From: a virus
Virus record (IMG/VR): IMGVR_UViG_3300025112_000081
Strand: one strand, 5' to 3'
DNA length: 33,876 nt
This document shows positions 6,942-33,876 of the stretch, in pieces. A program made the translations under genes and the position numbers. The notes under the pieces were generated by a model that saw only the letters and a list, made by a program, of their open reading frames with translations, ran no database searches and was not told the DNA's origin. Every line of letters starts with the position of its first letter. Within the stretch, counting starts at the first letter, position 1.

Positions 6942-6974
6942 GCCCCCAAAAGAAAAGGGGGCCTTAAGCCCCCC
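6942..6974 (-). terminator. Intrinsic terminator with a third, competing arm
   Basis: Minus-strand RNA: GGGGGC(6973..6968) UUAAG GCCCCC(6962..6957) UUUUCUUUU GGGGGC(6947..6942) AAU AUG(6938). Arms 1+2 form a GC hairpin followed by a U tract. Arm 3 is the SD-like element of the methyltransferase gene and can also pair with arm 2. Confidence 0.6.
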
Positions 6975-7014: not shown

Positions 7015-7314
7015 TTAGAACAGGTCCTGAGCTGGTTCTCTTTGCTGCCGATAACCAGATGATTCTTCCTGCTTTGGCTTTTGACGGGATACGCATAAGC
7101 GGTGAGTAGGTTGTTTTGAGCCTTCTTCTCTCCGGTCATTCTTAAAGACCCAGTATTTCATAGCACCCGCCGAACCGCTCATGTAGCTAGTTCCTGGTTC
7201 ATGCCAAAGCCCACAAACCTCGTGCGCTGAGTGTCTGGCTTTGGTGATTACTTCCTGAACTTCTGGAATTTGTAAAACATCCTCGACGGTCCATCCTTGA
7301 GGTAAACGTTTCAT
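7015..7314 (-). CDS. Hypothetical protein (99 aa)
   Basis: ORF-track entry 7015..7380 trimmed to ATG 7314, which is preceded by AAAGGAGAG and the ATTCAACC leader motif; followed by the strong terminator. Confidence 0.55.
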   Translation of the reverse strand: MKRLPQGWTVEDVLQIPEVQEVITKARHSAHEVCGLWHEPGTSYMSGSAGAMKYWVFKNDRREEGSKQPTHRLCVSRQKPKQEESSGYRQQREPAQDLF

Positions 7315-7322
7315 TTTAGTCT

Positions 7323-7341
7323 CTCCTTTAAGAGGTTGAAT
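7323..7341 (-). promoter_or_regulatory. Start-associated leader motif (ATTCAACC-TCTT-AAAGGAG), minus-strand copy
   Basis: Reverse complement of 7323..7341; ends 8 nt before ATG 7314. Confidence 0.5.
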
Positions 7342-7351
7342 TGGTAAAGCC

Positions 7352-7380
7352 ACTTTATCCCAGGTATGAGCCGCAACCAA
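7352..7380 (-). promoter_or_regulatory. Sigma70-like promoter candidate (TTGGTT-17-TAAAGT)
   Basis: Read on the minus strand upstream of gene 7314..7015. Confidence 0.25.
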
Positions 7381-7511
7381 TAAATTTGACTAACATGGGG
7401 AAAAAGAACCCCGAAATGGGGACAATTAAACCCATGTGATTTTTGCGGGTGGATGTGTCTTCGCCAAGATGGGCCGGTTGGGCCGGAAAAAGAAACAAGG
7501 CAGGCTGGGTA

Positions 7512-7558
7512 GTTTGTAGTGTTTGTAGTGTTTGTAGTGTTTGTAGTGTTTGTAGTGT
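7512..7558. repeat. Tandem iteron array: GTTTGTAGT x5 perfect copies plus a partial GT
   Basis: Perfect 9-nt units at 7512, 7521, 7530, 7539, 7548. Confidence 0.95.
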
Positions 7559-7659
7559 AATTTCCGGATTTCATTTATACTTTTTTTCTCGTATCTAAGC
7601 CCCCTAATATCATTACGCTTTTCCGTATTATATATTTTAACTCTTATGAATTAGTAAAA

Positions 7660-7680
7660 TACACTACAAACACTACAAGA
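7660..7680. repeat. 21-nt repeat TACACTACAAACACTACAAGA (two iterons in inverted orientation), copy 1
   Basis: ACTACAAAC is the reverse complement of GTTTGTAGT; identical to 7745..7765. Confidence 0.9.
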
Positions 7681-7715
7681 AATGAGTTTATCTAACAATA
7701 TCAAATGGTTAGCTT

Positions 7716-7741
7716 GTAGCGGAAGGAATCGCTTACGCTAC
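7716..7741. repeat. 26-nt perfect direct repeat GTAGCGGAAGGAATCGCTTACGCTAC, copy 1 (internal dyad GTAGCG...CGCTAC)
   Basis: Identical to 7802..7827. Confidence 0.9.
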
Positions 7742-7744
7742 TTT

Positions 7745-7774
7745 TACACTACAAACACTACAAGATTTGTAGCG
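7745..7774. repeat. 21-nt repeat copy 2 plus an abutting forward degenerate iteron (TTTGTAGCG), giving the dyad CTACAA-GAT-TTGTAG
   Basis: 7745..7765 is identical to 7660..7680; 7766..7774 has one mismatch to TTTGTAGTG. Confidence 0.85.
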
Positions 7775-7801
7775 TTAGACACACCGCGTTAGAGCGTAAA
7801 A

Positions 7802-7827
7802 GTAGCGGAAGGAATCGCTTACGCTAC
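7802..7827. repeat. 26-nt perfect direct repeat, copy 2
   Basis: Identical to 7716..7741; followed by AAAA, giving GCTACAAAA (a degenerate inverted iteron). Confidence 0.9.
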
Positions 7828-7899
7828 AAAATAAAAGTTCTAATAAAGGGGGGGGGTTATTGTAAGAACCGACCCAATCGCCTCAACTGGCCAAAACGC

Positions 7900-7939
7900 A
7901 TGGCCATTAATGGGGCAGATTGGTCCCATTTAAGGCCAT
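7900..7939. repeat. Imperfect 40-nt palindrome ATGGCC-ATT-AATGGG-(10 nt)-CCCATT-TAA-GGCCAT
   Basis: Two 6-bp stems separated by a 3x3 internal loop, read by eye. Confidence 0.5.
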
Positions 7940-8312
7940 GATCCACCGCCGGTTTCTCTCTGTTAGTGCTAGTTTCTTACCCCGTAAAATTTACCCATTT
8001 CATAACCAAAGGGTTAGTCATATTCTGCCCCCCCTTTAATGTTAAGCTGTCAAGTCAAAAGCCCACCCCCCTTTTGACTCGCTTGATATTATTAGGCTTT
8101 TCTCATGTGTACAAAAGTAGTCAAATTATTGACACCGAAAAGTTTACTTTAGTTCCCCAGCAATTTAAATTGAATCTGTGGACATAGGAGAGCGAAAAAT
8201 TAATCGAAAATAAGTTAGAGGACCGCCGCTACCATTTGCGCACCCGCGCTCTCCCTTTGTCCACCCAAAGCGGTGGCGGTGGTTCTCTCTTTTCACTCGG
8301 GAGGGTAATGCG

Positions 8313-10067
8313 ATGGGCCATGCGACGGGGCCAAGGTCGGGGAATTCAGAAAGAAAAATAAGAAACAACCTTCGGGGGCTCAACCACATCCCTGAAGATG
8401 ATTGGGTTGAACACGAGCTACTCGACGACCCAGGATTCAATTGTCCCCCGCAATGGGGGCAGCTTGAGAAGGAAACCGGGCCAGCTCACCCAGTCCCAGC
8501 GCTTGGGGATTGGAGCAAAGATGGTGCTCTTCTTATTCAACTCAAAGCATTCTTCTCCGAATATATCAACGAGACCGATAATAGCGGCAATCCTTGCCGG
8601 ATGGTCAAACACAACGATGAGGTTGACTTGTGGGGGGTTATCAAAGCCGGGTGGAAAAGACAGAACGGGGCTGAGCCAGTCATCACCGAGGGGCAGATGT
8701 GGCTCTACCAGAGGAATATTGGAATCTGGGCAAAAGCAGACACACCGGAGAGGCTTTATTTGTTCAGGCTCCTGCATGGCTTAAGCGCTGGCGATGGCTA
8801 CCAAGATTTTGATGGCAAAACGATTATGATGAACAAGAGAAATCTCTTGGCCCTCGATTTCATGGCGATGCATGACCACGCAATTATCCATAAGAAAAGC
8901 CCTTTTGCTGATGAAGTCCCTGGAGTTGTGCTTCTTACAAATTTACAGCCTGAGAGAAACCCGGCTTATTCAGTCAAGCAAACCCTTATTCACATGCCCG
9001 ACAAGGATGGCCACGTCCATTACATGGCTCCCGGTTTTGAAGAATTCAAACGCCACACGTATAACGAGCCGACGCCACGCCCCAAGCTCTCGGAAGTTGT
9101 TAATCTTAGATCTGAAAAAAACAACCCGGCGGCCTGGCACCATTACATGAAATCACTCTTTGCGGGGGATGAAGATGCAAAGGCAAAGGTGCAAACGATT
9201 GAAGAGCACTTGGGTGCCTCCCTATGCGGGCTTGCTACTAAATTTCAGCGCGTGGTGGTTCTAGAAGGCTCAGGGGCCAACGGGAAATCGCTCTTCATGG
9301 AAATAGCCCGCCGCCTATTTAATGCTGAAGATGTGACCGTGACGAGTCCCGACACTTGGGGCCGTTTTGGAACAGTTGACCTTATGGGGAAGAAAATCAA
9401 TCTAGTCACTGAGCTAGATGAGGGTTCAGTCTTTAAAAGTGATACCTTCAAAAGTGCAGTTACTGGGGATTTAATACGCGGGGAGTACAAGGGAGGGGCA
9501 AGTTTCTCGTTCAGGCCGGTGGCCGGGCATATTCTATCATGCAACTCTTTACCACCAGCAGCGGACCAGTCCCCCGGATTTTATCGGAGATTCATCTTGG
9601 TAAAGTTTGGGCGGCGATGGAGCCACTCAGACCCCGGATATCGAGAAGCGGACCAAATCCTAGATTCTATTATGGAAGTAAGGCACGAGATAGTTCAGCG
9701 CCTTGTTTGGTCTTGTGCTGAGTTGATGAAGCGGGGGCAATATCCGAACCTTTCAAGTCACAATTCAGCAATGAAAGACTGGGCTCAGAATTCTGATTCA
9801 GTGACTGACTTTGCGAATTCATGCCTTAAGAAAGATGATGAAGGAGACTTTATTAAGGGAATCGAAAAGCAACCAGACTTACATGGGGCCTTTCTGGTGT
9901 TTACCAAGAACACCGGGAGGAAGGGCATGGGGAATCGAAATTTCTACAGAAGGCTTGCAGCGATTGAAGGGGTAGACAAAAGAGAAAAGCACTACAACGG
10001 GAGTGCCTGTTTTAATGTCAAGCTAAACTATCAGGCGGACTGGTTAGAGGGCTCAAAGGATATATAA
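8313..10067 (+). CDS. DNA primase/helicase, D5 / P4-family SF3 NTPase
   Basis: Walker A VVVLEGSGANGKSLFMEI preceded by a D5_N-like segment (WHHYMKSLFAGDEDAKAKVQTIEEHLGASL). GGGAGGG lies 7 nt upstream of the ATG. The N-terminal ~270 aa are unassigned. Confidence 0.75.
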   Translation: MGHATGPRSGNSERKIRNNLRGLNHIPEDDWVEHELLDDPGFNCPPQWGQLEKETGPAHPVPALGDWSKDGALLIQLKAFFSEYINETDNSGNPCRMVKHNDEVDLWGVIKAGWKRQNGAEPVITEGQMWLYQRNIGIWAKADTPERLYLFRLLHGLSAGDGYQDFDGKTIMMNKRNLLALDFMAMHDHAIIHKKSPFADEVPGVVLLTNLQPERNPAYSVKQTLIHMPDKDGHVHYMAPGFEEFKRHTYNEPTPRPKLSEVVNLRSEKNNPAAWHHYMKSLFAGDEDAKAKVQTIEEHLGASLCGLATKFQRVVVLEGSGANGKSLFMEIARRLFNAEDVTVTSPDTWGRFGTVDLMGKKINLVTELDEGSVFKSDTFKSAVTGDLIRGEYKGGASFSFRPVAGHILSCNSLPPAADQSPGFYRRFILVKFGRRWSHSDPGYREADQILDSIMEVRHEIVQRLVWSCAELMKRGQYPNLSSHNSAMKDWAQNSDSVTDFANSCLKKDDEGDFIKGIEKQPDLHGAFLVFTKNTGRKGMGNRNFYRRLAAIEGVDKREKHYNGSACFNVKLNYQADWLEGSKDI

Positions 10068-10075
10068 CCAAGGGA

Positions 10076-10112
10076 GGCAGCGGGGCCGTGATTAGCAGCC
10101 CCGCTGCCGTTT
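10076..10112 (+). terminator. Hairpin, probable terminator after the primase-helicase gene
   Basis: GGCAGCGGGGC (10076..10086), 11-nt loop, GCCCCGCTGCC (10098..10108), then GTTT; the U tract is short. Confidence 0.45.
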
Positions 10113-10117
10113 CAGCA

Positions 10118-10133
10118 ACTCAACCAAAAGAAG
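10118..10133 (+). promoter_or_regulatory. Start-associated leader motif ACTCAACC-AAAAGAAG
   Basis: Ends immediately before GTG 10134. Confidence 0.5.
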
Positions 10134-10724
10134 GTGAAACAGGCATTAGCCGGAGGCACAATGACTAAGAAAAGACAGAGCATAGAATTTGATCGCGGTC
10201 AAGAAACCGAACAAATAGCACGATTCAGAAACGCATTGAGATTTGCAGGGCACGCACTCAACTGCGATGAAGGCTCCTATTGTCGGTGCGGTTTCGGGGA
10301 GTTAGAGAAGGCGCTAGCTCGAGCACAACGAGAAAACAAACCACCGACCGAGGATGCTTTTTATTTGTTTCGAGAATGCGCCGCAGAGATAACAGGGCAC
10401 AGAGGGGAATCATGTGCTGACAGGCGGTGTAAGTGCGGCGCAAAAAAAGCACTGAGAAAGCTAAACATCAAGAGCCCTGACGCAGACCAATTCGTTTCGT
10501 ACTGGTGCTCTCGGTGTTCAAGGGAGCACCATCAAGAGGACCTTGAATCATTCTGGAAAGAAAAAGACGCTTTAAACGTCCCTTTGGATTCAACCATTGA
10601 AGCGCTAAAAGAATCAAATAGAGAAAAGTGTAGGATGGGCAACTGCCCCACTAAAAACTGTGCTGGGCCTGTTAGACGGTCAATTTTATCATTAAAAAGA
10701 ATGATTCCGGATGTCCCATTTTAG
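10134..10724 (+). CDS. Cys-rich hypothetical protein (196 aa)
   Basis: GTG start supported by the leader motif. Internal duplication C-x4/5-C-x-C-G (CDEGSYCRCGFGELEKAL / CADRRCKCGAKKALRKL), plus CSRC and CPTKNC. Confidence 0.55.
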   Translation: MKQALAGGTMTKKRQSIEFDRGQETEQIARFRNALRFAGHALNCDEGSYCRCGFGELEKALARAQRENKPPTEDAFYLFRECAAEITGHRGESCADRRCKCGAKKALRKLNIKSPDADQFVSYWCSRCSREHHQEDLESFWKEKDALNVPLDSTIEALKESNREKCRMGNCPTKNCAGPVRRSILSLKRMIPDVPF

Positions 10725-10756
10725 GAATATTGTCAGGGATGAATAATAATAAACAA

Positions 10757-10770
10757 ACTCAACCAAAGGA
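10757..10770 (+). promoter_or_regulatory. Start-associated leader motif ACTCAACCAAAGGA
   Basis: 8 nt upstream of ATG 10779. Confidence 0.55.
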
Positions 10771-10778
10771 TTAAAACC

Positions 10779-11933
10779 ATGAAATCATTATTTATCAGGT
10801 GCTCTTCTCTCAAAGGGGTTCTTAGCTGCCCCTCTTACGGGCTAACGGATAAACCCTGGAACCCCGAAAGCGTATATAGCCAACAAGGTTCGGCCGGACA
10901 CCTGGGGGCTCAGTATTACATTGATCCTCTTCTCGGCATGGCGGGAGAGGTCCCTGATTTCCCAGAGGTCCAACTCAAGTACCCGCTAATTGATATTAAG
11001 GACCTCGAAATCTGCTTCTGGCTTTTTAAACGAATGTGGGACGAACACCTTGCGCCATTTATGGGGGAAAACATTAGTTGTGAGGTTAAGATGAAGGCTC
11101 GTCTTGGTGTTGTTGAAATAGACGGAGAAGAGACTGAGGTTTTTCTAACTGGCCACGCTGACATTATAGCCCAAACGGCCATGGATTTAATCGTCTATGA
11201 TTGGAAGTTTGGAAGAGCCCTTGGCGCTTCTCACTTTTCACAAACTGCAGGTTATGCAGCTCTAGCGGTGACTGTGTACGGGTGGCCAGAGTCCGGAGTG
11301 GTAACCGCTGGTGAGGCCTACCCCCGCTTTGGGAAATGGAAAGACCACACTCAGAAAATCGATAAGGTTTATCTGGGACAGTTCAAAGAAACGGTTCTTG
11401 AGACTTTAAAGCATAGGGGCAAAGTAAGAAACCCATCACCCGACGGTTGCAAGTTTTGCTCAGCCCGGCTTGACTGCCCAGAATACCCGCGAATGTTTCA
11501 GGATAGTTTTATCGCTGTGAAGGGGATGGTAGACGGAGATTCTAGCGTTGTTGACCCTGAAGAACTGGCTCATCTTCATTCAGCGTTTAAAACCCTCGAA
11601 TATGCTTGCAGCTCTTTCAAAAAGCTATTTGCAACAACCCTCGAAACAGCCAACGCTGTAGGGAAAGACAACGCAATAGAAGGTTTTTATCTTCAAGAGA
11701 AAACTAGGCGAAGTGTAGAGCCCCAAGCGGCATGGCCTCACCTTGCTAAAGTTCTTAATCAGGATGAAATTGCATCAGTTCTTTCTATGCCGCTAGCCAA
11801 GGTGAAAAGCGCGGTTATGAGCAAGACACCAGAAGGAATGAAGAAAAAAGAATTTTGGGCAGAGTTTGAGAAAGCCCTCTATGAATCAACCGCTATCATC
11901 GAAAGCTCTTCTTTGACCGTAGCAAAAAAATAA
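10779..11933 (+). CDS. Cas4-like / RecB-family PD-(D/E)XK exonuclease with Fe-S cluster cysteines
   Basis: GHADII...LIVYDWKFG (D...D-x-K), SQTAGY (QxxxY), an N-terminal Cys (RCSSLKGVLSC) plus C-terminal CKFCSARLDC (C-x2-C-x5-C); adjacent to recT. Confidence 0.75.
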   Translation: MKSLFIRCSSLKGVLSCPSYGLTDKPWNPESVYSQQGSAGHLGAQYYIDPLLGMAGEVPDFPEVQLKYPLIDIKDLEICFWLFKRMWDEHLAPFMGENISCEVKMKARLGVVEIDGEETEVFLTGHADIIAQTAMDLIVYDWKFGRALGASHFSQTAGYAALAVTVYGWPESGVVTAGEAYPRFGKWKDHTQKIDKVYLGQFKETVLETLKHRGKVRNPSPDGCKFCSARLDCPEYPRMFQDSFIAVKGMVDGDSSVVDPEELAHLHSAFKTLEYACSSFKKLFATTLETANAVGKDNAIEGFYLQEKTRRSVEPQAAWPHLAKVLNQDEIASVLSMPLAKVKSAVMSKTPEGMKKKEFWAEFEKALYESTAIIESSSLTVAKK

Positions 11934-11978
11934 GAAAACTTTACACGCTCTGGGGTTGTATATACTTTGGAGTCACTA

Positions 11979-11992
11979 ACTCAACCAAAGGA
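11979..11992 (+). promoter_or_regulatory. Start-associated leader motif ACTCAACCAAAGGA
   Basis: 6 nt upstream of ATG 11999; TTGTATATAC element 14 nt further upstream. Confidence 0.55.
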
Positions 11993-11998
11993 TTTGAA

Positions 11999-12364
11999 AT
12001 GATTAAAACCACAGAAGACATTCTAGGTGGCGGTATCGCCACAAAAACAACTATCAGCACAGGGTATTTCACCCCAGGCGGTGGAAGGTACCACCTCATC
12101 TGGGGGCACGTTCCAGACATTAACGACCCGGACGGGCCTCTTAAGTTCATCGGTACATGGATGAACAGAGGCGGCGGCGGTGTCACAGTTATGCACCAAA
12201 TTGGGACATTCTGTCATTGGACTTACGTTGATGAAAAAATGGGCATTGGAGAAGAGAACGCAAAGGCAATCGCCCACTTTATCAACTCAGTAAACTTTTT
12301 TGACTACAAGCCAGAGAACTACCTGGCCGATTTGCCACGAGGCGTCAAAGGGGCTCTGTCATGA
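11999..12364 (+). CDS. Hypothetical protein (121 aa)
   Basis: ORF with leader motif; Gly-rich; no recognisable domain. Confidence 0.55.
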   Translation: MIKTTEDILGGGIATKTTISTGYFTPGGGRYHLIWGHVPDINDPDGPLKFIGTWMNRGGGGVTVMHQIGTFCHWTYVDEKMGIGEENAKAIAHFINSVNFFDYKPENYLADLPRGVKGALS

Positions 12365-12525
12365 GATTAAAAACGGGGGATAGCGTTACAATTGACCACC
12401 AGGTTTTTGGCGCAAAGGTGATAGCTCAAAGCAAAGACGGAAAAAGAATCAAGGTAAAATACCACTGCCCTCGAGAGGGGCAGATTGTTAAATGTGTACA
12501 ACTCAACCAAATTACAAAGGATTAA
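12361..12525 (+). CDS. Small hypothetical protein (54 aa), not in the ORF track
   Basis: ATGA overlap with the upstream gene. MRLKTGDSVTIDHQVFGAKVIAQSKDGKRIKVKYHCPREGQIVKCVQLNQITKD fills the gap to recT. Its 3' end carries the recT leader motif. Confidence 0.45.
   Translation: MRLKTGDSVTIDHQVFGAKVIAQSKDGKRIKVKYHCPREGQIVKCVQLNQITKD
12501..12521 (+). promoter_or_regulatory. Start-associated leader motif, split variant ACTCAACC-AAATTAC-AAAGGA
   Basis: 7 nt upstream of ATG 12529. Confidence 0.5.
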
Positions 12526-12528
12526 AAA

Positions 12529-13431
12529 ATGGGTAATTTATCAGAAGCTCAGATGGCGATAGTAACGCTAATGGATAGAAAGTTTGAGGTGCTAAAAAAA
12601 GCACTTCCGGCGAACGTCAACCCGACACGATTTAAACAAGCCGCAATCATGGCCGCAACGGAAAACCCTAAAATCGTTTTAGAATGCACGCCCGTCTCAG
12701 TATTCACAGCCATCTTGCAAGCGGCCCAGCTTGGTTACAATCTCGGCTCTGCTTATAACGAGGCATATTTAATCCCATATAGGGACAAGCGCCGAGGCGT
12801 TACAGAGTGCAAACTAACTCCCGGCTATGTTGGAATGAGGCGAGCCCTAATTCGTTCCGGAGCTGCTGATGTAGTTCACGCGTCTATCGTGCATCAAAAC
12901 GACATTTGCACAATCTCTCACCACCCACCAAGCGTTAAACATGAGATTGACTTAAAAGGGGATAGGGGGGAATGGCTGGGGGTTCTTGCCTGTGCTTATC
13001 GCCTTAATGACGGGGTTCACCAGCTCATTGACTTTGAGTATTTGAGCGAAGAAAGAATCCTCGCAGCTAAGGCCCAGGCGAGGGATAAATCGCTATGGAA
13101 CAAGCACCCCGAACAATTCTGGAAAAAGACCGGAGTGCGGGCATTGGTTAAACTCTTTCCCCTGGTCAACGATGAACTCGTCACAATGGTTTCGTGGGAC
13201 AATGAGAGCAACATCCCTTTGGAAGAGCAAGCCCCCACAATCCACCAGGACACCGCTACAGCGGTCGCGGCTGTAAAGGAGCTACCACAAGCGGAAGTTC
13301 TACCACCGCCACCAGAGAGCCCACAGGCAGCTGAGGCGAAGAAAAAGACCAAGCCGCGCAAAAAGCGCACAACTAAGAAACAAAAAGAAGACAACGGGCT
13401 TAATGTGCCTGTGCCTTTCGGGTTTGCGTGA
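12529..13431 (+). CDS. recT: RecT-family single-strand annealing recombinase
   Basis: SVFTAILQAAQLGYNLGSAYNEAYLIPYRDKRRGVTECKLTPGYVGM matches the RecT core pattern; basic K/R tail; next to the exonuclease. Confidence 0.8.
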   Translation: MGNLSEAQMAIVTLMDRKFEVLKKALPANVNPTRFKQAAIMAATENPKIVLECTPVSVFTAILQAAQLGYNLGSAYNEAYLIPYRDKRRGVTECKLTPGYVGMRRALIRSGAADVVHASIVHQNDICTISHHPPSVKHEIDLKGDRGEWLGVLACAYRLNDGVHQLIDFEYLSEERILAAKAQARDKSLWNKHPEQFWKKTGVRALVKLFPLVNDELVTMVSWDNESNIPLEEQAPTIHQDTATAVAAVKELPQAEVLPPPPESPQAAEAKKKTKPRKKRTTKKQKEDNGLNVPVPFGFA

Positions 13432-13661
13432 TGAGAAGCAAAGAACAAGACTCTAACTCGAGACTAGCTAAAGCCATCAAGACCTATCTCCGGTGGGTTA
13501 ATAGGACGGTAGCTCTTGAATACCTTGGGGGAGAATATCACCCGCTCGGTGAGGGGGAAAGGGTGTTTAGAGTGGACACAATGAGAGACCTGGCAAGCAG
13601 TATAGGAAAAGAGGCTCGAAATGTTGCGGAAGAAAACCACATAGAGGGGGGAGCAAAATGA
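13431..13661 (+). CDS. Hypothetical protein (76 aa)
   Basis: TGATG junction with recT (GTG 13428 is an alternative start). Confidence 0.5.
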   Translation: MRSKEQDSNSRLAKAIKTYLRWVNRTVALEYLGGEYHPLGEGERVFRVDTMRDLASSIGKEARNVAEENHIEGGAK

Positions 13662-13855
13662 AGACAGAGAAAGAAATTCTAAAAGAAGGAAACGCGGATT
13701 CTTGGAACCGTGACGTTTTGCAATTCTTGCTTGCAGAAACAGAAGAGCGCCAGGCAAGAGAACGGGCAGAGGAAACAGCAACTAGGAAGTTTTACCGGTG
13801 GGTGCTTTCTACGCTCTTACTCACTGGATTAGTTTGGGTGGGGTTGGTGCTATGA
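13658..13855 (+). CDS. Small membrane protein (65 aa, C-terminal TM)
   Basis: ATGA overlaps at both ends; hydrophobic FYRWVLSTLLLTGLVWVGLVL. Confidence 0.5.
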   Translation: MKTEKEILKEGNADSWNRDVLQFLLAETEERQARERAEETATRKFYRWVLSTLLLTGLVWVGLVL

Positions 13856-14010
13856 AAAACCAATATTTAAGAAGAAAGCAAAAGCAATCTTTCAGAATAC
13901 CTTTTGAGCGATTCGGTCCAACTGAATGGATTGGTTTGGCTCTTGCTTCTTCGCTCTTGTTGTCTTGTTCTACGATATTTCTTTTTGAAGTTTTGGGGGG
14001 GTTATCATGA
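13852..14010 (+). CDS. Small membrane protein (52 aa)
   Basis: Track ORF 13798..14010 trimmed to the ATGA-coupled ATG 13852; TM WIGLALASSLLLSCSTIFLFEVL. Confidence 0.45.
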   Translation: MKNQYLRRKQKQSFRIPFERFGPTEWIGLALASSLLLSCSTIFLFEVLGGLS

Positions 14011-14279
14011 AAAATTTACCAGAGAGAGGCGGCTCTTTATCTTATGGCCTATTTGACGAGAGGCCCCCAATCGGTCGGTGGCTTATGATGGGTATAGTCT
14101 TCGGCGCGGTCGGCTTAGTCTGTTACGGTGGATACCATCACGGAGTAAAGCTTGAGCAGGCAGCATTGGGGAGCCCAAAGCCAGAGGCTCGTGCCACTAA
14201 GAAGCAGGAGAAGAAAGCCAGCCAGATAACAGAAGGCAATCGTGAATGGCTCACAAGCATAGCAAAAGGGGGTGAGTGA
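14007..14279 (+). CDS. Membrane protein (90 aa, one TM)
   Basis: ATGA coupling; TM WLMMGIVFGAVGLVCYGGY. Confidence 0.5.
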   Translation: MKNLPERGGSLSYGLFDERPPIGRWLMMGIVFGAVGLVCYGGYHHGVKLEQAALGSPKPEARATKKQEKKASQITEGNREWLTSIAKGGE

Positions 14280-14548
14280 TGGGATTCTGGGGAAAGAAGA
14301 AAACAAGAAAGAATTTAGTCAAGCATGACATTCAACAAACTCATGATGTTCTTGATTACATCAACCACACAGCATTAAAAACGGCTGGGATGGGTGCAGA
14401 GTACAAGAAGCGGTTAATAATGGAGGGGGATGAGAATGACAAAGTAAGCATGGACATTTGCGACGCTGTGACTATTCAACTCAAAGGGGCGTATGAGACT
14501 ATGTTCGAGCTGGTAAAAGAAAAGCAAAGCCAGCCGGAGATAAAATAA
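14279..14548 (+). CDS. Hypothetical protein (89 aa)
   Basis: TGATG junction (GTG 14276 is an alternative start). Confidence 0.5.
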   Translation: MGFWGKKKTRKNLVKHDIQQTHDVLDYINHTALKTAGMGAEYKKRLIMEGDENDKVSMDICDAVTIQLKGAYETMFELVKEKQSQPEIK

Positions 14549-14563
14549 CAAAAGGGAGGGGAT

Positions 14564-14737
14564 ATGAATTTATTGCTAGAGAGTTTTCATTCACTGAGTC
14601 CAGGAGGGATTGCAATTTTAATTAGCTCTTCTGTGATTTTTGCTTCAGTTAGTATCAGGGCTTCCGGGATGTGGAGGGCAAATAGGCGGCTAAAAAAAGC
14701 CATCAACGCGATAAACATCGGGTTGCCTTATGGATGA
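14564..14737 (+). CDS. Small membrane protein (57 aa), not in the ORF track
   Basis: GGGAGGGG lies 4 nt upstream of the ATG; MNLLLESFHSLSPGGIAILISSSVIFASVSIRASGMWRANRRLKKAINAINIGLPYG; overlaps the next gene by 8 nt. Confidence 0.5.
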   Translation: MNLLLESFHSLSPGGIAILISSSVIFASVSIRASGMWRANRRLKKAINAINIGLPYG

Positions 14738-15185
14738 GCAGACCCCCGAAGAGAAGCGGAAGGAGAGCACCAAGCGTGCGATCCTCCGCTTCTATAAAGG
14801 GCAAGAGCCCAAGAAAAGAAACAAGCGCCTAGACGTTCCTTATGAATGGCAAGAGGCACGGGACTTCGTTCAATGGATGCGGTCCATGAACATCCTGCAT
14901 ACGCATATTCCGAACGAGGGTAAGCGCAGCGGTCAACGCGGTAAAGCAATGGTTGAGGGCGGCTTAAGCAAAGGGTTTCCGGATTTCATTATCCTTGGCC
15001 CCCGCCCCCCGTGTGGCGCTCCAGGGATAGCCATCGAATTGAAGCGGACGAAATACTATTCTCACCCACGTGAGCAAAAAGCTTGGCTTGCAAAGCTGCG
15101 CCAATACGGCTGGAAAGCTGATTTTGCCCACGGAGCTGATGAAGCCATCGAGCTGGTGTCGAAATGGCTTAATCTACCAAAATAG
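14730..15185 (+). CDS. VRR-NUC domain nuclease
   Basis: HIPNEGKRSGQRGKAMVEGGLSKGFPDFIILG...IAIELKRTKYYSHPREQKAWLAKLRQYGW fits the VRR-NUC pattern (G.PD...iE.K....s..Q..w...l...G). Confidence 0.75.
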   Translation: MDEQTPEEKRKESTKRAILRFYKGQEPKKRNKRLDVPYEWQEARDFVQWMRSMNILHTHIPNEGKRSGQRGKAMVEGGLSKGFPDFIILGPRPPCGAPGIAIELKRTKYYSHPREQKAWLAKLRQYGWKADFAHGADEAIELVSKWLNLPK

Positions 15186-15253
15186 ATCGAGCAAAGTACA
15201 TTTATTTTTTCTTATGATTTCAAGGGCTTAGATGCAAGACGTGAGTCCCCCCT

Positions 15254-15295
15254 GCTTTATTGTATATACATCTACTGAGCTTTATTGTATATACA
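15254..15295. repeat. Two perfect 17-nt direct repeats GCTTTATTGTATATACA, each containing the palindrome GTATATAC
   Basis: Copies at 15254..15270 and 15279..15295, 25 nt centre to centre. The 10-mer TTGTATATAC also occurs at 11956..11965. Confidence 0.85.
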
Positions 15296-15324
15296 AGGGG
15301 TGCCCCGCGATGGGGCGCACGAAA

Positions 15325-15338
15325 ACTCAACTAAAGGA
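15325..15338 (+). promoter_or_regulatory. Start-associated leader motif ACTCAACTAAAGGA
   Basis: 7 nt upstream of ATG 15346. Confidence 0.5.
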
Positions 15339-15345
15339 TTTTAAA

Positions 15346-15681
15346 ATGACATTTTCAGCAACAATTATAAAAGCAGTCAGCACTCTTGGAGGTGATCTCC
15401 AGACCGTCTTAGAAAGCATGGTTTCGTCGGCCGATATTAACGCTATTGACACAAACGGCGACTATGAGGAAATCTTCACGGGTACATGGAACGGAATCGA
15501 CACGGCCGATCATGTCGAAGATATCGACGAAGACAAGCGGGAGGCCATGGCGGATCTAGCCCGTGCTTGGATGGACGCTTGGCCAGATGCATCTAAGCTT
15601 TCAGAAATCGAATCGGTAGCCGCCAAGCTCGCAGCGCAGGCGGCTGAGATTGAATTATTAAAAGCGCAATTAAACAATTAA
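15346..15681 (+). CDS. Acidic hypothetical protein (111 aa)
   Basis: Track ORF 15232..15681 trimmed to ATG 15346, because the upstream part overlaps the repeats and the leader motif. By my count, about 22 D/E versus 7 K/R. Confidence 0.55.
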   Translation: MTFSATIIKAVSTLGGDLQTVLESMVSSADINAIDTNGDYEEIFTGTWNGIDTADHVEDIDEDKREAMADLARAWMDAWPDASKLSEIESVAAKLAAQAAEIELLKAQLNN

Positions 15682-15682
15682 A

Positions 15683-15700
15683 AATCAACCAAAATTAGGA
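15683..15700 (+). promoter_or_regulatory. Start-associated leader motif variant AATCAACC-AAAATT-AGGA
   Basis: 9 nt upstream of ATG 15710. Confidence 0.4.
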
Positions 15701-15709
15701 GCAACTAAA

Positions 15710-16072
15710 ATGGAAGACCTGGATATTTTACGACAAAACGTCGAAGACCTCGTCTGTGACCCGCCAGTTCGGGGCACTATGGAATATGCCCAAATGGTGC
15801 TTATCAATGCACTTGAAGCCGGGCTAACTAAGACGCGGAAAGCCCTAGCCGTCGCCCTTGACATTAAAACAGGCACTCCCGTTCCTGTTCACGCCCCTAT
15901 TGAAGCCGCCCCTGATCGTAAGCTTTCGGCGTTGGATAAATTGTCCAAAATCAATATGCACCGCAACGAACGCATCGCCGAACTTGAAGCCGAAGTTGCC
16001 GAGCTTAATGCCGAACTTAAAGACTGCAAGGAAGCCTGCGGCATAGCTATCCGCTTGTCCGCTTCTAGCTGA
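15710..16072 (+). CDS. Hypothetical coiled-coil protein (120 aa)
   Basis: ORF with leader motif; C-terminal heptad-like IAELEAEVAELNAELKD; followed by a terminator. Confidence 0.55.
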   Translation: MEDLDILRQNVEDLVCDPPVRGTMEYAQMVLINALEAGLTKTRKALAVALDIKTGTPVPVHAPIEAAPDRKLSALDKLSKINMHRNERIAELEAEVAELNAELKDCKEACGIAIRLSASS

Positions 16073-16131
16073 AATCAGGGAAACGGAATCGTCTGGAGAA
16101 GGAGCAACCAATAACTAACCAATGCCTAAGA

Positions 16132-16153
16132 GCCCGCCTAGTGCGGGTTTTTT
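16132..16153 (+). terminator. Rho-independent terminator
   Basis: GCCCGC (16132..16137), loop CTAGT, GCGGG(T), then a T6 run at 16148..16153. Confidence 0.7.
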
Positions 16154-16177
16154 GCGTGTAGCTTAGACAAGTAAACA

Positions 16178-16190
16178 ACTCAACCAGAGG
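16178..16190 (+). promoter_or_regulatory. Start-associated leader motif ACTCAACCAGAGG
   Basis: 7 nt upstream of ATG 16198. Confidence 0.5.
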
Positions 16191-16197
16191 TAAGACA

Positions 16198-16521
16198 ATG
16201 GAATTCAAGATCTACAAGGCATACGACATCGAAACGCAACTCGCTAATATCGAGGATTTTATCAAGCAAGTACCTAACTTTAGAGCCACTGCAAAATATA
16301 TCATCAACAATTCCAGCGAGAAAATTGTTGATTTACAAGAGCTGGTAGACGGTGAGACTACGCTGTCTAAATATTGGACGTCATCTGACAAGCAGTCAAG
16401 CATCGGCTTCTGGTCAATCGAGACTCCAGACGATGAAATCTGGGAAATTCTAAAATCAGAAGGCCACGATGGCACGGGCGAAATCGAAAACTGTCTCGTT
16501 GAGCCTCACGAAATCGCATAA
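16198..16521 (+). CDS. Acidic hypothetical protein (107 aa)
   Basis: ORF with leader motif; D/E-rich. Confidence 0.55.
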   Translation: MEFKIYKAYDIETQLANIEDFIKQVPNFRATAKYIINNSSEKIVDLQELVDGETTLSKYWTSSDKQSSIGFWSIETPDDEIWEILKSEGHDGTGEIENCLVEPHEIA

Positions 16522-16525
16522 GACA

Positions 16526-16539
16526 ATTCAACCAAAGGA
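16526..16539 (+). promoter_or_regulatory. Start-associated leader motif ATTCAACCAAAGGA
   Basis: 7 nt upstream of ATG 16547. Confidence 0.5.
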
Positions 16540-16546
16540 AAACAAA

Positions 16547-17053
16547 ATGAAGATTAAATCAATAGAGATGGACGCGGACCCACAAGTATTCAACCCCGAG
16601 GGTGTCCCTTATATCAAAATTAGTTTCGAGATAAACGGGGCAGATTTTCAGTGGTGCGAGTGGACGGATGGGGACGTTTTAGAAGTGACGGATTCAATGG
16701 AATCGGCAGGCGGGAATGATTGGATGTGGGGAGAACTTGAAAACGCAGGAGAGGAAAAAGATGTCATTCTTGAGCATCTTAGATTCATCGCAAAATCTTT
16801 TCTTGCAAACTCAACGTTAAATCAAATCCAACGATGTGAAGAGCATTTCAAAAATCTTCCTCTGGGAATGAAGTCTGATACCTACAGGCTAGAGCCAGAC
16901 CCAAGGGTCACCGAAGAAGTGGACGCCGAGCGGCTTGATAGAGAGAGCGAGCGAGAAGAATTTAAGAGGGCTCTCCGTGTTAGGCAAGCAATGCCTACGA
17001 ACGATTCTTGCTATGAAGTGGACGCCGAGCGGCTAGAAGAGGAGGTAGCGTAA
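16547..17053 (+). CDS. Acidic hypothetical protein (168 aa) with an internal EVDAERL duplication
   Basis: Track ORF 16469..17053 trimmed to ATG 16547 on the basis of the leader motif. 20-nt perfect direct repeat at 16916..16935 and 17015..17034. Confidence 0.55.
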   Translation: MKIKSIEMDADPQVFNPEGVPYIKISFEINGADFQWCEWTDGDVLEVTDSMESAGGNDWMWGELENAGEEKDVILEHLRFIAKSFLANSTLNQIQRCEEHFKNLPLGMKSDTYRLEPDPRVTEEVDAERLDRESEREEFKRALRVRQAMPTNDSCYEVDAERLEEEVA

Positions 17054-17418
17054 TGGCCTCTGAACCATGCCTTTGCGGCGCTCTTGATTGCAAATTCTGC
17101 AACCCCAGCGGGTGGCGGGAAGTTCTTAATCCGCCATCGGGGGATTGCTACTGGTGCAAAGATACCGTTGAAGCAACGCCCGGAGATGATGCCATCTGCA
17201 GCGGTTGCCTTTACCCATTCACCGACAATCCCGATGTGATTATTGAATTTTCAATCAACCAAAAAGACGAAGACGAGAAGAAAATCAAAGAGCTATCTGA
17301 AAAAATTGACGAAATAACGATTATCACTCGGCACTTGAATCAGCAAAATATGCGTTTCAGAGAAGAGCGAGAAGCTGATTCTAAACCCAAGCCACTCAAC
17401 GGAGAGGCTACACTATGA
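17053..17418 (+). CDS. Cys-rich (zinc-ribbon-like) protein with a coiled-coil tail (121 aa)
   Basis: CLCGALDCKFC...CYWC...CSGC, then a K/E-rich helix; TAATG junction. Confidence 0.5.
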   Translation: MASEPCLCGALDCKFCNPSGWREVLNPPSGDCYWCKDTVEATPGDDAICSGCLYPFTDNPDVIIEFSINQKDEDEKKIKELSEKIDEITIITRHLNQQNMRFREEREADSKPKPLNGEATL

Positions 17419-17570
17419 GCAACAACGAACAGCTCTCAGAAACGATTCTGATAAGGATTTCCCCAGAGATGAAGGCAAGCATCAGGAAAGAAGCAAAAGC
17501 CCGTGGGAAGGCGTCCTCGGCGCTCATACGCGATGCAATCAGTAAAGCAGTTACCCAGAAGAAAAAATAA
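17415..17570 (+). CDS. Ribbon-helix-helix (CopG/Arc-like) DNA-binding protein (51 aa), not in the ORF track
   Basis: ATGA overlap; MSNNEQLSETILIRISPEMKASIRKEAKARGKASSALIRDAISKAVTQKKK shows the strand-helix-helix pattern typical of RHH proteins. Confidence 0.6.
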   Translation: MSNNEQLSETILIRISPEMKASIRKEAKARGKASSALIRDAISKAVTQKKK

Positions 17571-17576
17571 AGGAAC

Positions 17577-17594
17577 GGGGCTCGCGCAAGCCCC
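17577..17594 (+). terminator. Hairpin GGGGCT-CGCGCA-AGCCCC after the RHH gene (weak terminator candidate)
   Basis: 6-bp GC stem; the downstream CGCCCTTTACC is a poor U tract. Confidence 0.3.
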
Positions 17595-17747
17595 CGCCCT
17601 TTACCCTCCGCAAGTCTGCATAAATTGGCAGATGGCAATCAAGACAATCGCAGCAACAAACCATTCGTCTTTATCAATTGCAAACCGCCCGCGTCGATTC
17701 TTCATGTATGCTATTGTAAGCGGTTTCCCCTGACAAAAGCCAGAAGC

Positions 17748-17776
17748 TTGCCGCTGTGCTCCATGTAAGCTATCAT
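17748..17776 (+). promoter_or_regulatory. Sigma70-like promoter candidate TTGCCG-17-TATCAT
   Basis: In the 286-nt gap upstream of the phosphoesterase/lysis gene block. Confidence 0.35.
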
Positions 17777-17856
17777 AGAAGCAGGTAGGCACGCGGTTGT
17801 TCATGTGTGAATCTACCCACATTTACCGACAGTTTCCCCAGGAGGGCGGGGCAACG

Positions 17857-18600
17857 ATGGCAAGCAAGGCTTTTAAGAAGGTTCTTTTTATACCGGACGT
17901 CCATGTCCCGTACCATGACCGGTGCGCCTGGAGGATTCTTATTAAGTCAATAAAGCGGTTTCAGCCAGACATACTGGTTATTCTCGGAGACTTCGCCGAC
18001 TGCTTCTCAGTCTCAAAACACGACAAATCCCCCGATAGAAAAACACTTCTACATCAAGAAATTGATTCAGTAAGAGACCACCTCGAGCAACTCGAGGGGC
18101 TAGAAATAAAGCGCAAAATCTATGTTGCTGGGAACCATGAGTACCGGCTTGAGCGTTACATCACTCAAAAAGCCCCCGAGCTGTTTGGCCTTGTTGATAT
18201 TCCTACCCTACTGCACCTCAAAAAAAATAAGTGGGAATATGTGGAATATAAGAACCATATAAGCATCGGCAATCTCGCCGTAGCGCACGACTATGGCTCC
18301 GCAGGTCAAACAGCTCACAGAGTTGCCTCACAGCGTTTTGGAGTGCCGGTTGTTATTGGGCACACTCATAGGGCCGCTTCTTTATCCCGCAGAACGTTTA
18401 ACGGGAAACATATCCAATCGGCCATGTTTGGCTGGCTCGGGGATATCAAGGAAATCGATTACATGCACCAAGCCGCAGCTAAGACCAATTGGACGCTGGG
18501 CTTTGGTATTGGCTACCTTCTCAGAACTGGTGAAGTAATTCTTCATCATATTCCAATCGTTAACAATTCGGTGATTTTAGAAGGGAAGATAATCAAGTGA
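17857..18600 (+). CDS. Calcineurin-like metallophosphoesterase
   Basis: Motifs IPDVHVPYHD, LGDFAD, GNHE, GHTH. Track ORF trimmed to ATG 17857, which has AGGAGG upstream. Confidence 0.8.
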   Translation: MASKAFKKVLFIPDVHVPYHDRCAWRILIKSIKRFQPDILVILGDFADCFSVSKHDKSPDRKTLLHQEIDSVRDHLEQLEGLEIKRKIYVAGNHEYRLERYITQKAPELFGLVDIPTLLHLKKNKWEYVEYKNHISIGNLAVAHDYGSAGQTAHRVASQRFGVPVVIGHTHRAASLSRRTFNGKHIQSAMFGWLGDIKEIDYMHQAAAKTNWTLGFGIGYLLRTGEVILHHIPIVNNSVILEGKIIK

Positions 18601-18620
18601 AAATCCCGAAAGAGGTAAAA

Positions 18621-18878
18621 ATGGGGGGTCACAAGCTGAAGGTAATAATGAGAAACTTAGACAAAGAAAAGATTGATGATGCTGTGGGGGTCTTCGGATA
18701 TTTTGATTCTGAAAGGCTAGAAATCCACATCAGCACAACAGCCCCCGAGAGTATTCAATGGGAGACCTTCATCCATGAAATAATCGAAGCAACCTGTTTT
18801 TTCACTGAGACCAGTCTACCCCACCCAACAATTCAAGCCTTCGGGCTTCTCATCTCCCAGGCGGTTGCTGATGTTTAA
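18621..18878 (+). CDS. Hypothetical protein (85 aa; GTG 18597 is an alternative start)
   Basis: AAGAGG upstream of ATG 18621. HEIIE is not a true HExxH motif. Confidence 0.45.
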   Translation: MGGHKLKVIMRNLDKEKIDDAVGVFGYFDSERLEIHISTTAPESIQWETFIHEIIEATCFFTETSLPHPTIQAFGLLISQAVADV

Positions 18879-19452
18879 GTTTGAAAACGTCCTTTTGTTT
18901 ATCATTTTCATCGTTTTATGGACGGCTACCTTCCTAACTATCTCCGCCTTGATTTCAGGTTGTGGGAAGCCCCATTTTTACGGTGAAAATACTGGGCAAG
19001 AAACCCCAGCTCCCGACGCTACAAAATGGATTCACATCTCACCGGAAGAAATGAATGAGCCATTGGAAGCGGGCACCTATAAAGTAGGCACCTACGTAGA
19101 GCAGCCGGGGTGCGGCGTGCCATACGGGCCAGCCGGGATGGACACTTGGCAGCTATGGAGCCAAGATGGGCAACGATATCTCGCGCAAGTTGGGCAGCCT
19201 CATGTAGTTGGAGCGGTGGCTATAGCAGAAGCTGGGCAGCCGAATACATACACCCACCGAGCGCATCACTATAGCGCTGGATGCGTTTACGAATACGTCA
19301 CTCAGATAAAATTACGGAAGCATTTCCCATATCAATTCCAGGGTGACTGGGCGCAGCTTGTGAACGTCGCCGATTATGAAGGCGCAGGAGGGTGCAGTCT
19401 ATCAGGGGCCGTCTGTCAATATTCTATGAAAGTAGCGGGCAATGGCGAATAG
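18871..19452 (+). CDS. Predicted lipoprotein (193 aa)
   Basis: N-terminal hydrophobic segment ending in the lipobox-like LISGC. Confidence 0.55.
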   Translation: MFKFENVLLFIIFIVLWTATFLTISALISGCGKPHFYGENTGQETPAPDATKWIHISPEEMNEPLEAGTYKVGTYVEQPGCGVPYGPAGMDTWQLWSQDGQRYLAQVGQPHVVGAVAIAEAGQPNTYTHRAHHYSAGCVYEYVTQIKLRKHFPYQFQGDWAQLVNVADYEGAGGCSLSGAVCQYSMKVAGNGE

Positions 19453-19714
19453 AATAAACCAGAAAAGCCGAATTTTCTTCAGCCTGGCCTTGTGCTCGTC
19501 TATCGTGCTAACAGCGTGCAACGGCTGTGCCCTTAGACCTCTTGGTGTGTCTTGTAAATCGATAGCGGTGGGGCAAGTTAAGAATAGAGGAGTGACAAGA
19601 GAAGAGATTTCTCTTTCTGAATCTCACGGGGCCCAAGAATCAAGAACGGTTTGCAGGATCATCTATTCACTAGAGGACATCGAAGAAGAGCTGGCGGGAG
19701 AGGCTGACTTATAG
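19442..19714 (+). CDS. Predicted small lipoprotein (90 aa); o-spanin or exclusion-protein candidate
   Basis: Signal peptide FFSLALCSSIVLTAC with lipobox LTAC; immediately upstream of the endolysin. Confidence 0.5.
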   Translation: MANRINQKSRIFFSLALCSSIVLTACNGCALRPLGVSCKSIAVGQVKNRGVTREEISLSESHGAQESRTVCRIIYSLEDIEEELAGEADL

Positions 19715-33765: not shown

Positions 33766-33876
33766 TTATCGTCCTTTCTCTTGCTGATATTCGGCATAGA
33801 GGCTTGGGTTATTTTTCCAGACATTCGCCAAAGCTTTTGCTTTTGTGATGCCTTCTTTTTCTATTAGCGCGTCTGC
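33766..33876 (-). CDS. Scaffolding protein, C-terminal part (continuation of 827..1 across the circular join)
   Basis: ...ADALIEKEGITKAKALANVWKNNPSLYAEYQQEKGR-TAA (stop at 33768..33766). 827 + 82 unique nt = 909 nt = 302 aa plus stop. Confidence 0.75.
   Translation of the reverse strand, partial: ADALIEKEGITKAKALANVWKNNPSLYAEYQQEKGR
33848..33876. repeat. Terminal direct repeat (circular-assembly overlap), copy 2
   Basis: Identical to 1..29. Confidence 0.9.

Follow-up and report, generated by a model that had tools for sequence, protein, structure and literature searches.

To our knowledge, start-associated sequences (SAS) have so far been described only for the Cluster K mycobacteriophages. 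They are asymmetric, multi-copy repeats on the coding strand of the non-structural arm, placed before genes that begin with ATG and follow a gap, and the repeat ends 3–7 bp before the start codon; they hold a Shine-Dalgarno (SD) core together with conserved positions that are unable to pair with ribosomal RNA (rRNA), and they stand before different gene families (PMC3203893). A subset of them is preceded by the extended SAS (ESAS), which has an inverted repeat and is now taken for a SigA-like promoter (PMC11373665). The function of the SAS was still unknown as of 2025, 14 years on (PMC3203893, PMC11373665, PMC12699233). Here we describe a short repeated motif with similar positional rules in an uncultured marine phage, IMG/VR record IMGVR_UViG_3300025112_000081, all 33,876 nt of which we refer to as the window. 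The motif has the consensus A-A-(C/T)-T-C-A-A-C-C-a-a-a, with TCAAC invariant in an alignment of 23 copies from three genomes, and in the typical leader it is followed by the SD block AAAGGA, 6–8 A/T-rich nucleotides and an ATG. An earlier note on this DNA had reported it before nine early and middle genes and had drawn a parallel with the SAS in spite of an unrelated sequence; the parallel holds feature by feature (PMC3203893, PMC11373665) and extends to an ESAS-like element.

Like the SAS, the motif is a short asymmetric repeat in roughly 10–20 copies (fewer here, 9–10), in one orientation and immediately 5' of start codons, confined to those genes of the non-structural arm that come after a gap, with a strong preference for ATG. 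Both contain or abut an SD core and have conserved positions for which no pairing with 16S rRNA is seen (here none beyond chance on that of E. coli), both are conserved across sub-lineages before different gene families, and in both a subset of the copies is preceded by a longer inverted-repeat element with promoter-like hexamers, the ESAS there and, as a putative counterpart with predicted promoter activity, GCTTTATTGTATATACA here. The sequences are unrelated, AAYTCAACC-AAAGGA here against GGGATAGGAGCCC (at most 2 mismatches) in Cluster K. Here the SD block has all of the conserved non-SD part on its 5' side, whereas in the SAS that part flanks the block, and the motif is separable from the SD block by 1–7 nt and once by about 25 nt; motif and SD together end 6–8 nt before the ATG. 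Besides, the carrier is an uncultured marine phage of ~34 kb in which no integrase was found (Pfam and PHROGs scans of its open reading frames, ORFs) and whose host is probably Gram-negative. Judged from this comparison, the motif is an analogue of the SAS by organisation, not a member by sequence or descent. An independent example, with another sequence, in another lineage and with a probably Gram-negative marine host, that follows the same positional rules and has an ESAS-like companion points to a general phage strategy and not to a mycobacteriophage oddity. As the conserved block is cleanly separable from the SD block here, sequence-specific and SD effects could be told apart by simple mutation.

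In phage T4, RegB cuts GGAG and the RegA sites are loosely conserved and overlap the AUG, and the epsilon sequence of T7 gene 10 has been proposed to pair with 16S rRNA. The motif resembles these as a signal in the initiation regions of mRNAs that belong to one temporal class, or as an enhancer just 5' of the SD; unlike them, it shows no requirement for GGAG, is strongly conserved and lies upstream of the SD. No homologue of RegA or RegB was found in Pfam or PHROGs scans, and several conserved small proteins had no detectable family. The stoperators of Cluster A (the L5 gp71 sites, ~13 bp; PMC9283540) are, like the motif, asymmetric, present in many copies, located in short intergenic spaces and oriented with transcription. 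However, they are found on both arms including the structural genes, whereas the motif serves one gene class and is absent from ~20 kb of structural genes, and as DNA sites they depend on a temperate phage's immunity repressor, with no fixed relation to an SD, whereas here the motif abuts the SD and the same scans found no repressor or integrase. The promoter-early stem-loop (PeSL) cassettes of T4-type phages (PMC2839356, PMC4122927) are also small repeated units of hyperplastic regions, sometimes with a stem-loop or terminator, that flank unrelated genes and may mediate the shuffling of modules. They consist of a sigma-70 early promoter and a stem-loop, while the conserved 9–12-nt block beside the SD is neither; of 27 copies here, only ca. 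10 are close to a -10-like hexamer, and a hairpin accompanies only about half. Stoperators and PeSL share fewer features with the motif than the SAS do.

Occurrence and conservation of the motif

The motif is a real, selected gene-expression signal, and its occurrence in the window is non-random. The two ends of the window carry an identical 29-nt direct repeat (1–29 and 33848–33876), so it represents a complete circular assembly of ~33.85 kb and the counts given here are genome-wide. The exact 8-mer ACTCAACC is found six times, always on the + strand, against 0.83 expected, and none of 100 shuffles reached six. The copies at 10118, 10757, 11979, 12501 and 16178 are just those given in the earlier note; the remaining one, which it had seen as a stray copy antisense in the protease gene (811–1827, minus strand), is there, at 1083–1090 and not 1082–1089. 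Its one-mismatch variants at 15325, 15683, 16526 and, on the minus strand, 7341..7334 are present too. Matches of this kind are unspecific (43 against 23 expected, a ca. twofold enrichment) and others on the + strand within genes (10256, 10588, 11884, 16588 and 17253) had gone unlisted, so these variants had been chosen by position.

An independent test used a 12-nt matrix for which only two relatives, L003 and L004 (introduced below), supplied the sites, 14 in all; the window was scanned with a cut-off of 14 bits. It gave nine matches against 0.41 expected. Eight of them, + strand sites from 10117 to 16536, sit 10–35 nt 5' of a gene start; no more than ca. 2–3% of both strands lies at such a distance from a start. 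The ninth (CAATCAACCAAA, 17252–17263) lies within the gene 17053–17418. This match and the exact copy at 1083–1090 are probably due to chance, and neither has a counterpart among the motif-like matches listed for the relatives L003 and L256. No match of at least 12 bits was found outside 10117–17263 on either strand, in agreement with the claim that overlapping (coupled) genes and the structural arm are free of the motif; the major capsid and other structural genes have ordinary SD sites. The minus-strand copy (7312..7342) has a lower matrix score, only because TCT replaces AAA after the core. Two further 8-mers, AACTCAAC and CAACCAAA, with eight copies each, are among the five commonest on the + strand. 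The earlier note had proposed a formal scan and conservation in relatives as checks of the motif, and both came out in its favour.

A few relatives were obtained by protein-guided searches of IMG/VR, ENA, TARA and JGI assemblies, IMG/VR giving one contig, and those recovered from metagenomes and assemblies are numbered L003–L008, L252–L254 and L258. The primase is 78% identical to that of the window in L001–L003 and likewise in L004, and about 90% identical in L006–L008; L258 is a further lineage, and L005 and L252–L254 are near-identical to the window. Orthologous motif positions are kept after the primase gene and before the exonuclease, the 121-aa protein, RecT and the first leftward gene. 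The motif is under purifying selection and its boundaries are sharp: across five lineages the 12 nt at orthologous sites are 93% identical, against 50% for the 20 nt directly upstream, and in the alignment of 23 copies the information content falls from 1.7 bits to ca. 0.1 bit at the 5' edge. The leftward gene has the T variant AATTCAACC in all lineages examined, which suggests that the third position is tuned and not drifting. Beyond the VRR-NUC gene the genomes diverge, the window genes 15346–17053 having no homologues in L003 and the L003 genes 16739–18939 being unrelated to them, and still the motif is used before these unrelated genes in both. Its place before non-homologous accessory genes of the plastic region is that of a portable signal.

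Within the genome, the association with strand and start codon is close, and almost all early and middle genes that stand alone have the motif shortly before their start. The motif always occupies the 3', SD-proximal end of long intergenic gaps (160, 125, 65 and 54 nt), at 0–7 nt from the SD block in about 20 of the 23 copies. The motif-linked starts of the window are all ATG, while the coupled genes of the same arm often begin with GTG or TTG. The motif is predicted to be unpaired with a probability of 0.66, the 40 nt upstream of it with one of 0.42, and no Rfam family was detected at the motif at E up to 1.

Individual copies, start codons and neighbouring elements

After the primase gene, AACTCAACCAAA (copy S1; 10117..10128, + strand) lies 9 nt past a conserved hairpin and 35 nt 5' of ATG 10161, whose SD is GGAGG. 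The DUF2800/PD-(D/E)XK exonuclease gene is preceded by AACTCAACC + AAAGGA + TTAAAACC + ATG 10779 (S2; 10756..10781, +), the gene of the 121-aa protein by AACTCAACC + AAAGGA + TTTGAA + ATG 11999 (S3; 11978..12001, +), with a promoter-like element ending 11 nt upstream, and RecT by AACTCAACC + AAATTAC + AAAGGA + TTAAAAA + ATG 12529 (S4; 12500..12531, +). S4 overlaps the final codons of a 54-aa ORF (12361–12525), and its 7-nt insert is kept in L003 and L004. Further to the right, all on the + strand, are AACTCAACT + AAAGGA + TTTTAAA + ATG 15346 (15324..15348), before a 111-aa protein and after a hairpin (15300–15320) and two palindrome-bearing repeats; AAATCAACC + AAAATT + AGGAG + CAACTAAA + ATG 15710 (15682..15712; 120 aa), which begins 1 nt past the stop codon of the gene before it; AACTCAACC + AGAGG + TAAGACA + ATG 16198 (16177..16200; 107 aa), 23 nt past a terminator-like hairpin (16131–16153); and AATTCAACC + AAAGGA + AAACAAA + ATG 16547 (16525..16549; 168 aa). 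The minus-strand copy, AATTCAACC + TCTT + AAAGGAG + AGACTAAA + ATG 7314 (S5; 7312..7342), belongs to the first leftward gene, of 99 aa. A possible degenerate tenth copy, ACTCAACG + GAGAGG + CTACACT + ATG 17415 (17394..17417, +), stands before the ribbon-helix-helix gene; its matrix score is low and it sits in the 3' end of the upstream gene. The four copies described earlier as fused directly to AAAGGA (10757, 11979, 15325 and 16526) are indeed so, and the distance of 8–20 nt from the motif to the start codons then named is correct.

One of those start codons does not stand. For S1 the earlier note had named GTG 10134, and the relatives contradict it, the equivalent codon being out of frame with the gene in L003, L006, L007 and L008; there the frame opened upstream is closed, just past the ATG matching window 10161, by a TAA lying across the second and third codons that follow this ATG. 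This ATG has its GGAGG block 4 nt upstream, and the gene calls in L003, L005 and L252 begin at its equivalent. Comparison of these sequences indicates that ATG 10161 is the conserved start. A GTG (ATG in L003 and L004) is nevertheless found 7–8 nt 3' of S1 in every lineage, including L006–L008 and L258, and opens a frame of 9–14 codons that is in some cases in frame with the gene and in others closed by the TAA just past the real ATG. It could be a coupled leader frame, with neither the peptide nor the frame conserved. The starts that had been corrected with the help of the motif (7314, 15346 and 16547) are plausible: 7314 agrees with independent gene calls in L003 and L004, while the automatic calls on L253 retain longer ORFs in place of the other two. 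In this lineage, then, the motif is an aid in the choice of start codons, supporting 15346, 16547 and 7314, although it misled at 10134.

A hairpin precedes about half of the copies. That between the primase gene and S1 (10076–10108, +) has an 11-bp GC-rich stem followed by a weak T run, CGTTTCAKC and then the motif; it is present in all lineages, with five base pairs kept through two-sided changes, and may be a weak terminator, an attenuator or a stabiliser of the mRNA 3' end. Between the gene 15710–16072 and the copy at 16198, an intrinsic-terminator-like hairpin (CCCGC/GCGGG) is followed by a T6 run (16131–16153, +). In L003, two nearly identical cassettes of ~45 nt (17325–17375 and 17675–17722) stand before consecutive small genes, each made of a GC-rich hairpin, T5, GGGTGTA, the motif and AAAGGAAAAAC; they look like a recent duplication or exchange of a terminator-plus-leader unit.

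Other elements are promoter-like. Upstream of S3 there is TTTACA-N15-TATACT (11940–11970, +), which contains TGTATATAC (11957–11965) and is kept in L004. Upstream of the copy at 15346 there are two direct repeats of GCTTTATTGTATATACA (15254–15270 and 15279–15295, +), each holding the palindrome TGTATATACA. Within a longer repeat, GCTYTTNTTGTATATACA, this palindrome is found upstream of three motif copies of the window and also upstream of copies in L003 (9202–9211 on both strands, 16695–16704) and L004 (10086–10094). The palindrome-bearing repeat is a candidate regulated promoter or operator, by analogy with the ESAS. One of the L003 palindromes faces leftward in the control region. A -10-like hexamer lies 5–11 nt upstream of the motif in about 10 of 27 copies, but the distance from hexamer to motif varies from 3 to 29 nt and at least 12 of the 27 have no such hexamer within 30 nt; what directly precedes these is a hairpin, a terminator or coding sequence. 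As the hexamers are variable or missing, the motif is separable from promoters, and copies of it are found near predicted mRNA 5' ends as well as inside operons. It is independent of promoter position and, as far as such predicted hexamers tell, not tied to a promoter of the sigma-70 type.

Possible role of the motif

The reading that we favour, to which we would give about an even chance of being right, is that the motif works at the RNA level in a translation-linked role, marking stand-alone early and middle cistrons. On the mRNA, AAYUCAACC(AAA) would be the upstream half of a composite translation-initiation region, followed by the A-rich SD block AAAGGA, a 6–8-nt A/U-rich spacer and the AUG. 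AAAGGA is able to pair with the UCCUUU tail of 16S rRNA, the anti-SD region. The cistrons served would be early and middle genes that come after an intergenic gap and are unable to use translational coupling. The motif, free of G and predicted to be mostly single-stranded, would be recognised sequence-specifically. Its partner could be the 30S subunit, through S1 or the platform, but its restriction to one gene class makes a trans-acting factor the likelier one. The result would be strong and co-regulated initiation on the motif-bearing cistrons, and the motif would be a portable expression signal, carried along by the accessory genes of the plastic region. We infer action on RNA and not on DNA, an effect on translation and reading by a specific factor. 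The SD-proximal place in the gaps, the coding-strand orientation, the link to ATG and the absence from coupled genes are best fitted by an mRNA-level element of the initiation region; the exact conservation argues for sequence-specific recognition and not for mere lack of structure; and the absence from capsid and late genes with ordinary SD sites points to a class-specific signal and not to a general enhancer. As a precedent, AC-rich sequences were co-selected with GGAGG as enhancers in ribosome display (PMC3310771).

Several observations weigh against this reading. The distance from motif to ATG spans 8–35 nt, unlike what is expected of an element that positions the ribosome, and S1, 35 nt from its real start, shows that near-SD spacing is not obligatory. 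Complementarity to 16S rRNA, another check proposed in the earlier note, found no support on the 16S of E. coli, which may not be that of the host: the best duplex (-9.0 kcal/mol) was matched by 28 of 60 shuffled 12-mers. The only match of the variant AAUUCAACC is to the 3' strand of helix 45 in the E. coli 16S, a strand that is itself paired and lies on the wrong side of the anti-SD. Among the small proteins that are conserved, none was identified as RNA-binding, and those of 99 aa (7015–7314), 187 aa (10161–10724), 121 aa (11999–12364) and 54 aa (12361–12525) have no Pfam or PDB relatives; the single-sequence AlphaFold model of the 54-aa protein is too poor to use (pLDDT 56). In L003 (17325–17350 and 17675–17700) terminator-like hairpins are found directly upstream of the motif with no visible promoter, which fits a compact promoter equally well. 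An asymmetric DNA site for a monomeric regulator would give the same strand bias (PMC9283540).

This last possibility, an operator like the stoperators at which a phage regulator would bind the duplex as a monomer and block or modulate the passage of RNA polymerase in one direction, shutting down the early and middle set, appears to us improbable. The asymmetric 9–12 bp, the many copies in short intergenic spaces and the orientation with transcription on both arms are hallmarks of Cluster A stoperators (PMC9283540), and a ribbon-helix-helix DNA-binding protein is encoded at 17415–17570; but its gene has no tblastn match in L003, which retains the motif, no integrase or immunity-repressor-like gene was found in the window, stoperators are genome-wide whereas the motif is confined to 10.1–16.6 kb plus one leftward copy, and the tight SD adjacency and the preference for ATG would serve nothing in a roadblock. 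The chances are equally low for a compact phage-specific promoter or initial transcribed sequence, used by the host RNA polymerase with a phage specificity factor, that would make each motif-bearing gene its own transcription unit. The late promoters of T4 are a parallel, being a single 8-bp element. Terminator-like hairpins with T runs lie 7–23 nt upstream with no promoter of the sigma-70 type in between (16131–16153 in the window and the two L003 sites just mentioned), the conservation has a sharp 5' boundary, and a hexamer 5–11 nt upstream, as in those ca. 10 of 27 copies, would let the mRNA begin at the motif or shortly 5' of it. Yet a transcription start 5–8 nt downstream would remove or truncate the AAAGGA block from the mRNA, the 0–7-nt spacing to that block would have no reason, and no RNA polymerase, sigma-like or gp55-like protein was detected among the ORFs of the window; the RecT copy inside coding sequence and the copy 29 nt past a separate promoter-like element (15286 to 15325) show that the two are separable.

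The motif might also be a site of RNA processing or stability, where an endoribonuclease would cut at or nearby, so that the upstream hairpin protects the new 3' end and the downstream cistron gains a defined 5' end, as RNase III does between the T7 early genes and RegB in the T4 early leaders. A hairpin or terminator just upstream of about half of the copies, including that with compensatory changes before S1, the predicted single-strandedness and the sharp 5' edge would suit this, which we nonetheless consider very unlikely: the other half of the copies lack the hairpin, the motif has neither the U-rich signature of RNase E nor the GGAG target of RegB, the only nucleases found are the DUF2800 exonuclease and the VRR-NUC protein, and cleavage would leave the fixed SD adjacency unexplained. 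There is a similarly slim chance that the motif is just an efficient ribosome-binding cassette without structure, multiplied by duplication and recombination and serving mainly as a junction for module exchange in the manner of the T4-type PeSL (PMC2839356, PMC4122927). It does flank non-homologous genes in the plastic region of the relatives, L003 has its two identical terminator-plus-motif cassettes of ~45 nt, and the phage encodes RecT and an exonuclease. Unstructuredness alone would not, however, keep an exact 9–12-mer at 93% identity while the flanks drop to 50%; a site-specific variant, AATTCAACC at the leftward gene, is kept in all lineages, and 9–12 nt are very short for homologous exchange; besides, such a role can coexist with an mRNA-level initiation element instead of replacing it.

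Within the translational reading, a more specific proposal, which we regard as possible but rather unlikely, is that the motif serves as an address label for a translation regulon specific to the phage. A phage RNA-binding factor, or a ribosome component modified by the phage, would read AAYUCAACC beside the SD and switch early and middle cistrons independently of transcription; the C-to-T variant at the first leftward gene would then tune that gene differently. If true, together with the SAS of Cluster K, it would mean that private translation-initiation codes arose repeatedly in unrelated phages.

Genome context and wider searches

The window has a G+C content of 48% and two divergent arms, separated by a non-coding region of 0.9 kb at 7.4–8.3 kb. 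The rightward arm (8313–20121, + strand) encodes a DUF5906/D5-type primase-helicase, the DUF2800/PD-(D/E)XK exonuclease, RecT, a VRR-NUC protein, a phosphoesterase and the M15 peptidase, along with many small proteins without assigned function, a ribbon-helix-helix protein and two lipobox-bearing ORFs. The minus-strand arm begins at 7314 with the 99-aa protein, followed by a DNA methylase, the small and large terminase subunits, a MuF-like protein, a Mu-type portal and the protease and, past the wrap-around, by the major head protein and the tail genes as far as 20316. The junction of the window ends falls within a minus-strand, scaffold-like gene of at least 282 aa. Pfam and PHROGs scans of the window ORFs found no RNA polymerase, sigma-like or gp55-like protein and no integrase or immunity-repressor-like domain, and no tRNA was found either. 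The only recognisable DNA-binding protein is the ribbon-helix-helix (CopG-type) protein of 51 aa (17415–17570, +; Pfam E = 7e-7).

There was no nucleotide match to any of 50,697 deposited phages. The nearest cultured large terminases are 45–53% identical and come from Microcystis, Brevundimonas, Pseudanabaena and Roseobacter phages; the Microcystis phage Mae-JY09, the nearest of them (53%), was set aside as uninformative, having a different, tightly coupled genome layout. A search for the host with the phage primase gave no match in a scan of 185,579 species genomes. Two ORFs directly 5' of the M15 peptidase gene (the three at 18865–19452, 19442–19714 and 19714–20121) have lipoprotein-box-like N-termini (LISGC and LTAC), which suggests a lysis module of spanin and endolysin and hence a Gram-negative host. 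The relative L003 is ENA ERZ11848503 NODE_1096, that is, IMGVR_UViG_2811995110_000316, and its capsid protein has been deposited at NCBI under a Candidatus Pacearchaeota metagenome-assembled genome; we reject this host label, because of the M15 peptidoglycan peptidase and the lipobox ORFs, and the contig was probably mis-binned.

Full-text searches of the literature did not find the exact motif. A scan with the 18-base motif plus ATG gave only scattered single matches in unrelated taxa, and a 15-mer scan of IMG/VR mostly single chance matches (e.g. collagen-like repeats), in both cases among the matches listed, so that other motif-bearing phages may exist. Some resemblances were considered by eye and dismissed as coincidence. 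The inverse core site of integrons, RYYYAAC, is fitted by ACTCAAC, but there is no partner site and no integrase; a MotA-box-like -30 element would imply a -10 falling on the start codon. The others were a same-sense likeness to the 16S segments GGGCUCAACC and AACUCAAAGGAAUU and resemblances to the anticodon loop of the initiator tRNA, to the GGA sites of CsrA/RsmE and to an IHF site.

The control region between the arms is rich in repeats. GTTTGTAGT is present there in 5.2 perfect tandem copies, an inverted double copy (ACACTACAAACACTACAAG) occurs twice, and so does a 26-nt repeat (GTAGCGGAAGGAATCGCTTACGCTAC); these tandem, inverted and 26-nt repeats occupy 7512–7558, 7661–7678, 7746–7763, 7716–7741 and 7802–7827. 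Such an arrangement suggests a replication origin of the iteron type or a region dense in operators, and the relatives have a gene-free stretch of 0.9–1.2 kb at the same place. Within the leftward arm, between the 99-aa gene and the methylase gene, the perfect GC-rich hairpin GGGGGCCTTAAGCCCCC (6955–6974), with T runs on the minus strand, is a terminator-like site.

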